Position numbers and translations under genes: made by a program. From the NCBI RefSeq assembly GCF_024223415.1, contig NZ_CP100503.1: DNA of 64,000 nucleotides. The stretch is one strand, 5' to 3'. Under the pieces are notes generated by a model. The model had not been told where the DNA came from. It did not search any database and saw only the letters and a program-made list of their open reading frames with translations. Shown here piece by piece: positions 17,768 to 29,995 of this stretch. Within the stretch, counting starts at the first letter, position 1, and each line of letters starts with the position of its first letter. This stretch comes from Escherichia coli (GTDB lineage Bacteria; Pseudomonadota; Gammaproteobacteria; Enterobacterales; Enterobacteriaceae).

Positions 17768-17989
17768 ATGCAATCCATTAACTTCCGTACCGCGCGCGGC
17801 AACCTTTCTGAAGTGCTCAACAATGTTGAGGCCGGGGAAGAGGTTGAAATCACCCGCAGAGGCCGTGAGCCAGCAGTAATTGTCAGCAAGGCTACTTTCG
17901 AAGCCTACAAAAAAGCGGCGCTGGATGCTGAATTTGCATCCCTGTTTGACACCCTGGACTCCACCAACAAGGAACTGGTTAACCGATAA
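17768..17989 (+). CDS. phd: Phd antitoxin (prevent host death)
   Basis: 73 aa; matches P1 Phd as I recall it. Confidence 0.9.
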
Positions 17990-18369
17990 TGAGGCATATA
18001 TCACCGGAAGAACTTATTGCGCTTCATGATGCGAATATAAACCGCTACGGCGGCCTGCCGGGAATGTCAGATCCGGGTAGGGCAGAGGCCATTATCGGGA
18101 GAGTTCAGGCCAGAGTTGCCTACGAAGAGATCACCGACCTTTTCGAAGTCTCCGCCACCTACCTGGTGGCTACAGCGAGAGGGCATATATTCAATGATGC
18201 CAATAAGCGTACCGCGCTAAACAGCGCGCTGCTATTTCTACGCCGTAACGGGGTGCAGGTATTTGATTCACCTGAACTGGCAGACCTTACTGTAGGCGCT
18301 GCGACTGGCGAGATATCTGTATCTTCTGTCGCCGACACGTTACGTAGATTGTATGGTTCTGCGGAGTAG
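17989..18369 (+). CDS. doc: Doc toxin (Fic-fold kinase, death on curing)
   Basis: 126 aa; overlaps phd stop (ATGA); HIFNDANKR Fic-like motif. Confidence 0.9.
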
Positions 18370-25594: not shown

Positions 25595-25803
25595 TATTGT
25601 GAGTCTAACTGGTTAGTTGCCATGAGATATTCGATTGTGTCAGTGAGGTCATCCAGGTCGTCTTGGGTGATGCGGTACTCCTGATTGGATATCTTTGAGT
25701 AGTGTTCAGCAATGGCGCGGGCAGCGTCGGTTTCGGCAGGGTCTACAGATAAAGCGTTAGAGCAATATCTAACGTCGTCGATGGTTGGTTGAATGAAAGC
25801 CAT
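25594..25803 (-). CDS. coi: C1 inactivator Coi
   Basis: 69 aa ORF immediately upstream of c1 on the same strand. Confidence 0.8.
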   Translation of the reverse strand: MAFIQPTIDDVRYCSNALSVDPAETDAARAIAEHYSKISNQEYRITQDDLDDLTDTIEYLMATNQLDSQ

Positions 25804-26043
25804 AATTATGCCTCACTGTATTGACAACACAGAGCCTGAAGCTCTGACCTACTGTTTCACCCATAATCCATGCTGGGGGTAATCTAACAACATTGCGCTG
25901 TGTGTAAGATGAGCAATGCATAGCTGTAATGCCGTTGTATAAGGTTTCCCTGTTTGCTCATTTCCTTCTGAGCCGCTCTACAACGCTGAAGACACATTAA
26001 ATAGTGAATCCAAAGTCGTATTACGTAACGGCGGCAAAACTAT

Positions 26044-26059
26044 AATTTATTAGAGCAAT
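26044..26059 (-). promoter_or_regulatory. C1 operator
   Basis: AATTTATTAGAGCAAT. Confidence 0.6.
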
Positions 26060-26125
26060 TGTCAAACAACTATGAAAAACAATCCAGTTTTTGGCTGGTG
26101 GAGTGGGATTTTTCTCTCAAAATTT

Positions 26126-26142
26126 ATTGCTCTAATAGTTCT
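26126..26142 (+). promoter_or_regulatory. C1 operator
   Basis: ATTGCTCTAATAGTTCT. Confidence 0.6.
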
Positions 26143-26185
26143 TGATCTTTATGCGCAGCTGGACGTAAACTGCTCTTCAGACCTA

Positions 26186-26219
26186 ATAACTTCGTATAGC
26201 AAACATTATACGAAGTTAT
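26186..26219 (+). other. lox: lox recombination site (loxP-like, spacer variant)
   Basis: ATAACTTCGTATA-GCAAACAT-TATACGAAGTTAT: perfect 13-bp Cre arms, spacer differs from canonical GCATACAT at one position. Confidence 0.85.
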
Positions 26220-26381
26220 CTTAAGGGTTATTGAACATGATTAATTTACCTGTAAATCCATACAGTTCAATACCTTATCAGGTCAAATAGTGATCACTTG
26301 ATCATTTGATCAAGGTTGCGCTACGTAAAATCTGCGAAATGTTGGCAGTGTTTGTGCTCCAGATTTCGCGTAGCGCATATA

Positions 26382-26425
26382 TCCCAAGATGGGACTAAAA
26401 AGCTTTACCTAATCCCAGAATGGGA
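26382..26425 (+). promoter_or_regulatory. Two palindromic putative HigA operator sites in the higBA promoter
   Basis: TCCCAAGATGGGA (26382-26394) and TCCCAGAATGGGA (26413-26425), 31 bp apart, just upstream of higB. Confidence 0.45.
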
Positions 26426-26456
26426 CTAATATACTTGCCGGGATAAGGAATATGTA

Positions 26457-26759
26457 ATGAAGATTATTTCGGTAAAAACATTGAGGGATTTTTGGTCTGT
26501 GAATCCCGATGCAGAACAACCATTAAAGGCCTGGGTTGACGAAGTCTCCAAGGCCACCTGGAAAAGCCCGGCTGATATCAAAGCGCAGTACCGATCTGCC
26601 AGCATTCTTAAAAACAGGCGGGTTGTCTTCAACATCAAAGGTAATGACTACAGATTAATTGTTGCAATTGCTTATCAGCGAGGATGGATGTTCGTTAAGT
26701 TTATTGGAACACATAAGGAATACGATGCCATCGACGCGGATACAATAGAGCTGGAGTAA
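26457..26759 (+). CDS. higB: HigB-family type II toxin (RelE/ParE superfamily mRNA interferase)
   Basis: 100 aa; C-terminal THKEYD motif and toxin-first gene order. Confidence 0.7.
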   Translation: MKIISVKTLRDFWSVNPDAEQPLKAWVDEVSKATWKSPADIKAQYRSASILKNRRVVFNIKGNDYRLIVAIAYQRGWMFVKFIGTHKEYDAIDADTIELE

Positions 26760-26762
26760 ATC

Positions 26763-27122
26763 ATGAACATTAAACCTATCCGTACAGAACAAGATTATCA
26801 GGCCGCACTACGCGCGGTCGAACCTATGTTCGATAACGAACCGGAAATGAACACCCCGGAAGGTGATTTCTTTGAGATAATGTGCCTGCTTATTGAAGAG
26901 TATGAAAAAAGACATTACCCAATTGAACCGCCTACACCCATTGAAGCGATTAAGTTCCGTATGGAACAGCAAGGGTTGACAGTGAAAGATCTGGAACCGG
27001 CGATTGGTAAGTCGAACCGTGTTTACGAAGTTCTGAATGGAACGCGAAATTTAACGTTACCAATGATTAGGCGTTTGCACGTACAGTTTGGCATTCCTCT
27101 CGAAAGTCTGGTTGGTGTGTGA
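26763..27122 (+). CDS. higA: HigA-family antitoxin (XRE-type HTH)
   Basis: 119 aa; C-terminal HTH (GKSNRVYEVLNGTRNLTLPMIRRL) resembling E. coli HigA. Confidence 0.7.
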   Translation: MNIKPIRTEQDYQAALRAVEPMFDNEPEMNTPEGDFFEIMCLLIEEYEKRHYPIEPPTPIEAIKFRMEQQGLTVKDLEPAIGKSNRVYEVLNGTRNLTLPMIRRLHVQFGIPLESLVGV

Positions 27123-27128
27123 CTTAAA

Positions 27129-28181
27129 ATGTCTAATGTCCTGACCGTACACCAAAATTTGCCTGCATTACCGGTCGATGCAACGAGTGATGAGGTTCGC
27201 AAGAACCTGATGGACATGTTCAGGGATCGCCAGGCGTTTTCTGAGCATACCTGGAAAATGCTTCTGTCCGTTTGCCGGTCGTGGGCGGCATGGTGCAAGT
27301 TGAATAACCGGAAATGGTTTCCCGCAGAACCTGAAGATGTTCGCGATTATCTTCTATATCTTCAGGCGCGCGGTCTGGCAGTAAAAACTATCCAGCAACA
27401 TTTGGGCCAGCTAAACATGCTTCATCGTCGGTCCGGGCTGCCACGACCAAGTGACAGCAATGCTGTTTCACTGGTTATGCGGCGGATCCGAAAAGAAAAC
27501 GTTGATGCCGGTGAACGTGCAAAACAGGCTCTAGCGTTCGAACGCACTGATTTCGACCAGGTTCGTTCACTCATGGAAAATAGCGATCGCTGCCAGGATA
27601 TACGTAATCTGGCATTTCTGGGGATTGCTTATAACACCCTGTTACGTATAGCCGAAATTGCCAGGATCAGGGTTAAAGATATCTCACGTACTGACGGTGG
27701 GAGAATGTTAATCCATATTGGCAGAACGAAAACGCTGGTTAGCACCGCAGGTGTAGAGAAGGCACTTAGCCTGGGGGTAACTAAACTGGTTGAGCGATGG
27801 ATTTCTGTCTCTGGTGTAGCTGATGATCCGAATAACTACCTGTTTTGCCGCGTCAGAAAAAATGGTGTTGCCGCGCCATCACCCACCAGCCAGCTATCAA
27901 CTCGCGCCCTGGAAGGGATTTTTGAAGCAACTCACCGATTGATTTACGGGGCTAAGGATGACTCTGGCCAGAGGTACCTGGCCTGGTCTGGACACAGTGC
28001 CCGTGTCGGAGCCGCGCGAGATATGGCCCGCGCCGGAGTTTCAATACCGGAGATCATGCAAGCTGGTGGCTGGACCAACGTAAATATTGTCATGAACTAT
28101 ATCCGTAACCTGGATAGTGAAACAGGGGCAATGGTGCGCCTGCTGGAAGTTGACATCCTCCCCCACCTTCGCACTTCGTGA
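27129..28181 (+). CDS. cre: Cre tyrosine recombinase with altered C-terminus
   Basis: 350 aa; matches P1 Cre as I recall it up to ...MVRLLE, then VDILPHLRTS encoded by IS end instead of DGD. Confidence 0.9.
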   Translation: MSNVLTVHQNLPALPVDATSDEVRKNLMDMFRDRQAFSEHTWKMLLSVCRSWAAWCKLNNRKWFPAEPEDVRDYLLYLQARGLAVKTIQQHLGQLNMLHRRSGLPRPSDSNAVSLVMRRIRKENVDAGERAKQALAFERTDFDQVRSLMENSDRCQDIRNLAFLGIAYNTLLRIAEIARIRVKDISRTDGGRMLIHIGRTKTLVSTAGVEKALSLGVTKLVERWISVSGVADDPNNYLFCRVRKNGVAAPSPTSQLSTRALEGIFEATHRLIYGAKDDSGQRYLAWSGHSARVGAARDMARAGVSIPEIMQAGGWTNVNIVMNYIRNLDSETGAMVRLLEVDILPHLRTS

Positions 28182-28200
28182 CTCAGGAGGGGGATTCCCA

Positions 28201-29433
28201 TTAGTGGGTGACGGCTGATTGCTCAGCGTCTGGTTCCTGCTTCAACGGGCGGTCTGACTGCACCGTCCCTCCACAGGCAAGTACGGCGTGCCCCGCCGCT
28301 AAAATGTTGCGAGCGCCGTTTACATCGGCGTTCGCTGTATATCCACAAGCCCGACACACGAATTTACTTTGTGTCAGGCGGTTTTCTTTCGCTGTATGAC
28401 CACAGCACGCGCAACGCTGGCTTGTGTACGCTGGCGGAACAGCAAGCACCTGACCACCACGCCAGAGCTGCTTGTACTCAAGCTGGCGGCGCATTTCATA
28501 CCAGCCCTGATCCAGTATCGAACGGTTTAAACCTGATTTTGCCCGGACATTGCGCCCCGGCTGGCTGACCGTACCCGCTGCTGACTTTGACATGTTGCTG
28601 ACCTTCAAATCCTCAATGACTATCATTGCGTGGTTTTTGCTGACGGTCGTTGTGACTTTGTGAAGGTAGTCCCTGCGGATATTTGCAATACGGGAATGCA
28701 GTTGCTGTATTTTGCGTTTCTGCTTCTGCCAGTTGTTGCTGAATTTGACCCTGCGGCTTAACTGTCGCTGAAGTCTCGCCAGCTTCTTCTGGTTTTTCTG
28801 AAAACTGTTTACAGGTTCAAAGACTGTGCCATCTGACAGCGTGGCGAGTTTAGCCACGCCAGCATCCAGACCGACTATCGTTGTGCTTGTGTGATTTGGT
28901 TCTGCCGTTTCAATTTCAACCTGAAACGAGATATACCACTGTCCCGCTAACTGACTGATTGTCGCATTTTTGATTTTACCGTTCACACGTTGAGATTGCC
29001 GGAATTTTACCCACCCAAGACCTGACGGTAGCTTCACTCTGCGATTTTCAAGGCAGCAATATTTCTCAAAGTTCACAAAACGGATTGAGTCTCTGCCCTC
29101 ATTTTTTCGTTTCCATACCGGAGCCTTAGCTGCGAGCTTTTTATCAAAACAACGTTTCCATGCGGTATGCAGGTCTTTCAGCTTTTGTTGCAGATTGTCG
29201 GTATAAGCATCCTGTAAGAAGATATATTCCGGCATTTTTTTCCACACTGTAATCATCCGGTTCAACTCGAAAGCCGAAGGTAACTTTTCGCCTGAGCCAA
29301 GTACGCGCTTTGTCTCCGCAAGACCTAAATTCCAGACAAAACGGGCGCAACCACATAACTGCCGCAAACGCTGCGACTGTTCATGCGTTGGTTCCAGTCT
29401 GAATTTGTAGGCTTTCAGGATTAGCATCATCAT
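28201..29433 (-). CDS. tnpB: TnpB (OrfB-family RNA-guided nuclease-like protein)
   Basis: 410 aa; C-terminal RuvC-like and zinc-finger region ([13 protein letters not shown]...[18 protein letters not shown]). Confidence 0.85.
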
Positions 29434-29485
29434 TCAGTGTGTAGTAGATTTTCTTGCAATATTACTGTTTTTACGGCCAACCTCA

Positions 29486-29890
29486 ATGCAAAAATACAAA
29501 ATCAATCGTTCAAGACATGCTGCCTTCCTTTTGCATGTTCATCTTGTCTTTGTAACAAAATACCGTCGAAAGATACTGGGAGAGTTACACTGTGCAGCAT
29601 TCCATCAGTATGCAGCAGAAGTCTGCCGTGACTTTGGGGCAGAACTTAAAGAAAGTAACGGAGATGTCGATCATGTCCACATGCTGATCGAATACCCACC
29701 AACAGTGCAGCTTTCGGTACTGGTTAACTCACTGAAAGCAGTGACATCCCGCCGTCTGCGAAACGAATTTCTTGATTTGCGGGGGGCATACGGAAAAGCC
29801 GTGCTCTGGTCGAGGTCATACTTTGCTGGCTCCTGCGGAGGTGCGCCGCTGGAAGTTGTGAAGCAATATATTCAACATCAGCGAGGCTGA
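29486..29890 (+). CDS. tnpA: IS200-type Y1 (HUH) transposase TnpA
   Basis: 134 aa; HVHLVF, HuH motif DHVHMLI, catalytic Tyr region WSRSYFAGS. Confidence 0.85.
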   Translation: MQKYKINRSRHAAFLLHVHLVFVTKYRRKILGELHCAAFHQYAAEVCRDFGAELKESNGDVDHVHMLIEYPPTVQLSVLVNSLKAVTSRRLRNEFLDLRGAYGKAVLWSRSYFAGSCGGAPLEVVKQYIQHQRG

Positions 29891-29995
29891 GCACCCTTCG
29901 GGCTTTTCAAGCCCGTCCAAATTCCCCTGCCGCCTTATGTCGGCGGGAGTACCCTTTGGAAGTTAAGATGGCGATTAGCCATTAACGCGTAAATG

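Follow-up and report, generated by a model that had tools for sequence, protein, structure and literature searches.

Loci of the higBA type are defined by an inverted gene order in which the toxin gene comes first (PMC2814082). In Escherichia coli K-12, HigB cleaves only mRNA that is being translated, HigA neutralises HigB and represses the single promoter upstream of both genes, and induction of higBA is Lon-dependent (PMC2814082; PMC11980606). On the F plasmid a different toxin-antitoxin (TA) pair, ccdAB, lies upstream of the recombinase gene resD, with which it is reported to share an operon, and co-expression of TA and recombinase genes has been proposed or shown (PMC5065971, PMC7157771). 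The subject here is a higBA pair located between the recombination site lox and the recombinase gene cre in a 64,000-nt stretch of E. coli DNA (contig NZ_CP100503.1 of assembly GCF_024223415.1; called the window below), which is a P1-like phage-plasmid. Few recombination systems are used as heavily as Cre/lox, and the regulation of P1 cre, with its three promoters, Dam methylation and the unexplained gene cra, is only partly understood; the lox-cra-cre region of P1 was reportedly described by Sternberg in 1986. The explanation we favour, at a probability of roughly 0.7, is that a functional cassette of a PF09907-type HigB and its HigA replaced the dispensable cra and the two cre-proximal promoters in a P1-like sub-lineage, giving a compact higB-higA-cre operon.

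The window keeps lox, the LexA box of the P2coi promoter, the Dam-sensitive P3cre promoter, an inverted repeat and cre itself, all as in P1, but lacks cra, P2cre and P1cre, so that the latter part of the canonical P1 order (lox, P3cre with its Dam sites, cra containing P2cre, P1cre, cre) is replaced. The interval from the end of lox (26219) to the cre ATG (27129) is 909 bp, longer than that of P1 and close to the 940 bp or so given in a first-pass annotation made from the DNA alone. Pairwise BLAST found P1-like homology at 26150-26377 and 27127-27200, two backbone blocks that are 98% and 96% identical to phiW39 and 94% and 96% identical to P1; the DNA at 26379-27125 instead resembles the higBA module that D6-like phage-plasmids such as pTB423 carry (87% identity). 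The junctions fall at 26377/26378 on the left and at about 27126/27127 on the right, and the module thus starts with its first operator and ends just beyond the higA stop codon. These 749 bp replace 258 bp of P1 and phiW39 in which cra (AF234172 207-428), P2cre (283-312) and P1cre (400-424) are found. The locus is a base-precise replacement of cra and the two cre-proximal promoters rather than a simple insertion; the first-pass annotation had the position between lox and cre right, but not the manner of arrival. Both cra and cre are non-essential for plaque formation by P1 (PMC10695390). The order at the locus is lox-higB-higA-cre with the three genes all on the + strand (open reading frame (ORF) listing and reading of 25800-28500), and P1 positions are converted to window positions by adding 26202. 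The features are:

17768..18366, + strand: phd (17768-17986) and doc (17989-18366), the classical addiction module of P1
26186..26219: lox, arms ATAACTTCGTATA and TATACGAAGTTAT with the spacer GCAAACAT between them; aligns with lox as annotated in phiW39 and P1
26249..26264: LexA box (CTGT-N8-ACAG) belonging to P2coi, a leftward promoter; P1 backbone (maps to AF234172 46-65)
26292..26331, + strand: P3cre (pR1) promoter region, P1 backbone
26306-26311 and 26326-26331: P3cre hexamers, -35 TTGATC and -10 TAAAAT, mapped from the P1 annotation (AF234172 98-129)
26317..26377: imperfect inverted repeat, P1 backbone
26378..27126, + strand: higBA module of 749 bp (operators, promoter, higB, higA)
26382..26394: operator O1, TCCCAAGATGGGA
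26404..26432, + strand: predicted higBA promoter, -35 TTTACC at 26404-26409, 17-nt spacer containing O2, -10 TAATAT at 26427-26432
26413..26425: operator O2, TCCCAGAATGGGA, within the promoter spacer
26457..26759, + strand: higB, 100 aa, RelE-fold toxin of the PF09907 (K-12 YgjN) type
26763..27122, + strand: higA, 119 aa, antitoxin and predicted repressor; Xre-type helix-turn-helix at the C-terminus
27129..28181, + strand: cre, 350 aa

The toxin gene comes first and is separated from the antitoxin gene by 3 nt on the same strand; only 6 nt separate the higA stop codon (27122) from the cre ATG. The pair is therefore directly upstream of, and co-oriented with, a recombinase gene and lies beside that recombinase's site, a perfect 13-nt inverted repeat around an 8-nt spacer. 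An Rfam scan of the lox-cre interval gave no match.

The naming of the two proteins rests on Pfam, PDB and PADLOC, as no NCBIfam model matched either of them at E <= 0.001. HigB matches the Pfam family HigB_toxin (PF09907) along the whole profile (1-74 of 74; E 9.2e-35, 119 bits against a cut-off of 27) and also the solved HigB of E. coli K-12 and Shigella (PDB 5IFG, 5YCL, 6KML; E about 8e-9). Residues 6-112 of HigA match the HigA chains 5IFG_B and 5YCL_A (E about 3e-8), and its score against Pfam HTH_3, 22.3 bits, is just below the cut-off of 23. HigB residues K42, F58, N59, G62, N63, R66, H86, Y89 and D90 are invariant in 18 homologues, among them K-12 HigB, whose toxicity has been shown by experiment. 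Ratios of nonsynonymous to synonymous substitution (dN/dS) against the D6-like allele and a second allele, L098, are 0.06-0.07 for higB and 0.04 for higA, by which measure both genes are under strong purifying selection. A 16-nt near-repeat in higA (AAGTTCCGTATGGAAC at 26952-26967 and AAGTTCTGAATGGAAC at 27028-27043, 76 bp apart) has partly palindromic copies in different reading frames and is probably due to chance.

The K-12 HigB-HigA pair (YgjN-YgjM; 5IFG, 6KML) and that of Shigella (5YCL) have in common with the window a PF09907 toxin, the toxin-first order and an Xre-type helix-turn-helix at the antitoxin C-terminus, as well as a single upstream promoter with palindromic repressor sites (PMC2814082; PMC11980606). 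The toxins share the residues FN..GN..R and (T)H.(E/Q)YD. Identity of the toxins is only 29%, however, HigA has 119 aa in the window and 138 aa in K-12, and the K-12 pair is chromosomal whereas that of the window is on a phage-plasmid with a recombinase gene directly after it. Homology, gene order and conserved residues all fit, and support, assignment of the pair to the HigBA type II TA systems of the K-12 YgjN-YgjM type, in agreement with the HigB-like toxin and HigA-like antitoxin of the first-pass annotation. Nearly all relatives consist of two genes, for a toxin of some 100 aa and an antitoxin of some 120 aa. The cassette itself, machine-annotated in GenBank, is of an ordinary kind within a well-known family.

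The two palindromic operators that had been noted upstream of higB are present and recur throughout the family. TCCCA-N3-TGGGA has two matches in the 64 kb (26382 and 26413) where 0.04 are expected, at least two sites were found in none of 100 shuffled sequences (0/100), and a scan of the window with one mismatch allowed gave no further sites. The palindromes are the cores of a 25-nt direct repeat with 31-bp spacing. HigB relatives were collected from IMG/VR viral contigs (the best 80 of 98 stretches, 40-92% identity), and those of at least 50% identity were surveyed for the palindrome, with one mismatch tolerated, in the 120 bp next to the start codon. It occurs in 41 of 42 distinct upstream regions, against a background of 27 in 1600 random windows from the same loci. 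In the homologues the arms are conserved and the central three bases free, and the palindrome typically sits between a TTGnnn -35 and a TAnnnT -10. The layout of two operators at 31-bp spacing is common to the D6-like and L098 alleles. These observations support the palindromes as predicted repressor-binding sites within the promoter, a trait of the family. The higBA promoter of the window was placed by alignment with the homologues, in which the -35, palindrome and -10 are conserved, and the promoter scan calls the equivalent TTTACA-17-TACTAT in pTB423.

In pTB423 an intrinsic terminator (GGCGGTC-TGTAT-GACCGCC followed by TTTGTTGT) stands directly after the higA stop codon, and it has no counterpart at the higA-cre junction of the window. 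Scans of the + strand from 25900 to 28300 called neither a terminator nor a sigma-70-like promoter. With a gap of 6 nt, no terminator called, the donor-type terminator missing, and P1cre and P2cre deleted, a predicted higB-higA-cre transcript, or read-through into cre, is very likely, and this anatomy supports the earlier suggestion that transcription from the TA promoter may enter cre. The Shine-Dalgarno sequence of cre is weak (-4.7 kcal/mol at long spacing, compared with -6.2 for higB and -5.9 for higA), so translation of cre probably depends on ribosomes that finish higA, and translational coupling of cre to higA is plausible. P1 cre also has a weak Shine-Dalgarno sequence (-2.5), and P1 cra stops 7 nt before cre.

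The cluster of GATC sites (26292, 26300, 26308) and the inverted repeat, which the first-pass annotation had treated together with the TA pair, are present, as are the other sequence features that it listed, exactly where it put them or a few bases away; the cluster and the repeat, however, belong to the P1 backbone, namely the Dam-sensitive P3cre region, and lie outside the TA module. The region of P3cre is 98% identical to phiW39, and the sites at 26300 and 26308 are P1 Dam sites 2 and 3. The whole window has 248 GATC sites where about 250 are expected, so the clustering is local. P1 Dam site 1, near lox, is lost (GATT at 26239-26242), and an extra GATC is found at 26292-26295 where P1 has GACC; phiW39 has both Dam site 1 and the 26292 site. 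With one Dam site lost and one gained, the methylation-sensitive layout of P3cre is slightly unlike that studied in P1. The arms of the inverted repeat (26317-26334 and 26360-26377) are 18 nt long and 89% complementary around a 25-nt loop, folding as DNA at -15.5 kcal/mol (z = -4.3), and the outer right edge, 26377, is the last P1-like base and hence the left junction. The repeat is unlikely to act as an RNA terminator or attenuator, since the P3cre -10 lies in the left arm, so that a P3cre transcript would not contain both arms, and no T-run follows. The 73-aa Cra of the replaced segment (207-428 in the P1 record, L001; 660-881 in that of phiW39, L003) has no Pfam match and is widely named 'creatininase' in NCBI and UniRef records, which looks like a name-propagation error from the gene symbol.

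The first-pass annotation had raised the possibility that P1-like references all carry the pair at this site. The lox-higBA-cre arrangement is found in none of the 23 phage records matching the region (P1, P7, phiW39, SJ46, RCS47 and D6 among them), in 2 of 700 P1-like plasmid records of PLSDB (pMTY1886_NA2, deposited twice) and in 1 of 767 complete E. coli genomes with a match. In the wider body of assemblies, largely drafts, the lineage is nonetheless not rare: the exact HigB protein is encoded on 463 contigs. All 12 contexts that were read (ten with the exact HigB, plus the variants L097 and L098) have the order c1-coi-lox-higB-higA-cre, and both junction strings are identical in 11/11 carriers checked. 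Near-invariance among carriers was rejected as a sign of recent spread, the loci having been retrieved by exact HigB sequence. A general cargo hotspot between lox and cre was likewise rejected: among 60 records sampled across the 700, 58 matched the query over its full length, and 57 of these had a cra-sized interval (about 845-872 bp spanned), the other being pMTY1886_NA2 with higBA.

The HigB variants L097 (96% identical) and L098 (94%) occupy the same lox-cre slot. The window differs from L097 at 16 of 749 bp in the cassette and at 22 of 1022 bp in cre, an equal divergence. Synonymous divergence (dS) of L098 from the window is 0.5-0.6 in the cassette genes compared with 0.11 in cre; its left junction is that of the window, and a 74-nt spacer separates its higA and cre. 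Because L098 is a distinct allele, the cra/higBA polymorphism appears to have some evolutionary depth, or to have arisen more than once. In L098 (Logan ERR273769_308, 1550-2700) the operators read GTCCCATTTTGGGAC and GTCCTGAAATGGGAC, cre starts MPNLLT, and the left arm of lox has one mismatch (ATAGCTTCGTATA).

The higBA modules of D6-like elements (pTB423, pYU39_89) resemble that of the window at 87-88% nucleotide identity across operators, promoter and both genes, have the same two operators at 31-bp spacing, and are also found on phage-plasmids that bear phd-doc. They differ in lying between tail genes, with an intrinsic terminator and facing a convergent tail gene, whereas the window module is between lox and cre, lacks the terminator and is fused to cre. 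A search for a closer donor than the D6-like allele found none, and the HigB variants of 94-99% identity that were checked (P0051, P0052) are in the same lox-cre slot. At 2240-3367 phage D6 (L002, MF356679) carries another RelE/HigA pair, orf70 and orf71, and after it a higA standing alone, with 86% identity to higA of the window and no cognate higB; in many D6-like plasmids, the match to the query is confined to higA. The lone higA suggests toxin swapping, or an orphan antitoxin kept for anti-addiction. phd and doc were located in the window by tblastn with Phd and Doc sequences as queries (full-length matches, Phd 100% and Doc 98% identity), which supports the proposal of a second addiction module beside phd-doc; the same combination has been described as the double addiction system of D6-like plasmid prophages (PMC6799933).

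By analogy with K-12 HigBA (PMC2814082, PMC11980606), HigB would cleave mRNA on translating ribosomes, HigA would bind and neutralise HigB, and HigA or the HigBA complex would bind O1 and O2 and repress the promoter. A protease-labile HigA would mean that loss of the replicon frees HigB and the cell is arrested or killed, so that higBA would serve as a second stabilisation module beside phd-doc. Transcription of cre would come from the self-repressed higBA promoter together with read-through from the retained, Dam-sensitive P3cre. A tentative extension is that control of Cre has been handed to the TA autoregulatory circuit. In a newly entered cell free of HigA, nothing would repress the higBA promoter, and a burst of higB-higA-cre mRNA would supply Cre just as the terminally redundant genome needs circularising at lox. 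HigA would then build up and leave the lysogen with a low, repressed level of Cre, enough for dimer resolution, and depletion of HigA through stress or falling copy number would bring more Cre and a transient slowing of growth together.

Other explanations deserve weighing. The prophage might carry the cassette for its host mainly as a means of anti-phage defence, abortive infection or competition between elements, which would come into action when phage infection turns off host expression or makes HigA unstable, with addiction and effects on cre secondary; this is compatible with the replacement and operon described above, and as the main role we find it doubtful. In PADLOC, HigB matches PD-Lambda-2_A (PDLC03979) at E 1.1e-41 (positions 1-96 of 97) and HigA matches PD-Lambda-2_B at E 1e-42 over positions 1-119 of 402, and PD-lambda-2 gives abortive-infection protection against lambda-vir (PMC9519451). 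Viral contigs of IMG/VR contain 98 stretches that encode HigB relatives, the homologue of D6-like phage-plasmids forms an island within the tail genes, and TA modules of the RelE/ParE superfamily are increasingly tied to defence (PMC11980606). The likeness to PD-lambda-2 (Vassallo et al. 2022, PMC9519451) is nevertheless limited to its A protein and the N-terminal part of B. The C-terminal ImmA/IrrE peptidase domain of B is absent from the window pair, as is the P4 antitoxin-like third gene, PD-lambda-2C, that defence requires (PMC9519451); the next ORF is cre. Membership in PD-lambda-2 was rejected on these grounds. The literature yielded no defence phenotype for two-gene HigBA modules of this clade, and such a role is possible but unsupported.

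The pair might instead be a selfish passenger that plays no part in the regulation of cre, Cre being made at P1-like levels through P3cre read-through or from an unrecognised promoter in the 3' portion of higA. Upstream, P3cre is kept with its Dam sites, the 74-nt spacer of L098 could hold signals of its own for cre, and the site tolerates change, given the non-essential nature of cra and cre for P1 plaques (PMC10695390). A P3cre transcript must, however, cross O1, O2, higB and higA, which puts cre on the same mRNA anyway; the + strand scan that called no sigma-70-like promoter in the window region called none at 1500-2800 of L098 either, the donor-type terminator is missing exactly at the junction, and the junction strings are exact in all the carriers checked. 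We regard an unlinked passenger as unlikely. Very improbable is a decaying, inactive remnant, for example one in which the antitoxin is kept for anti-addiction and the toxin is dead. D6 and many D6-like plasmids do keep only the higA homologue, without this higB, but in the window both ORFs are full length, all the family-invariant HigB residues are there, higB has the low dN/dS given above, and the identical HigB protein recurs across the 463 contigs.

Some points count against the higB-higA-cre operon reading that we prefer. The higBA promoter of the window was not called by the promoter scan and agrees with the consensus at 8 of 12 positions; there may be a weak cre promoter within higA; and tight coupling is not universal, given the spacer of L098. 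In PD-lambda-2 the HigA-like B is toxic and the HigB-like A rescues (PMC9519451), and this reversed polarity means that homology does not fully guarantee which protein of the pair is the toxin. Toxicity, neutralisation, binding of HigA to the operators and the extent of the transcript are all inferred, and sequence does not discriminate between addiction, defence and Cre control as the biological role.

Two further differences affect lox and cre. The lox spacer of the window (26199-26206, GCAAACAT) departs from the canonical GCATACAT by a T to A change at 26202, its fourth base; the canonical spacer is found in all 12 other cassette carriers (L005, L007-L016 and L097) and also in L098, phiW39 and P1. 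Such a change could make the site recombine poorly with canonical loxP, and it could be a sequencing error. The catalytic residues of Cre are intact, with two substitutions relative to P1 before an altered C-terminus in which the last three residues, DGD, have become VDILPHLRTS through the insertion of an insertion sequence (IS). This IS200/IS605-family element (28153-29964) entered cre at codon 341 and carries tnpB on the - strand (28201-29433; OrfB_IS605 and Cas12f1-like TNB domains) and tnpA on the + strand (29486-29890; Y1_Tnp). It parts c8 from the annotated c8 promoter, which in P1 lies inside the 3' end of cre, and is present in 4 of 12 related loci (L007, L010, L013, L015) and absent from pMTY1886_NA2. 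A sub-threshold Rfam match to RAGATH-18 RNA on the - strand (28234-28277; 28.1 bits against a gathering score of 44.9, E 0.015) overlaps tnpB in its 3' portion, close to the end of the element that faces cre.

The P1-like higBA-cre locus is a further, independent example of a TA pair next to a resolution recombinase. As in ccdA-ccdB-resD of F and the TA pairs at res of Tn3-family transposons, the TA genes directly precede a multimer-resolving recombinase gene of the same orientation, close to the target site of that recombinase. Those pairs involve other toxin families (CcdB, ParE and others) and other recombinases, whereas the Cre of the window also circularises the infecting phage genome, and its co-transcription with higBA is inferred from anatomy. 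A literature search found no paper describing higBA at lox-cre. What is new is this position and the fusion to cre, the kind of cassette being already known, and we consider the finding mildly to moderately interesting. If the tentative handover of Cre control is correct, multimer resolution would be tied to a temporary halt in division, a link already suggested for Tn3-family TA/resolvase pairs and for F. The locus also shows that two stabilisation modules can occur together on P1-like elements, which was already known for D6-like ones. With cra and two of the three cre promoters swapped for a TA cassette, this natural lineage is a ready-made experiment on what cre regulation needs, and is of interest for P1, for the regulation of Cre and for the association of TA systems with recombinases.

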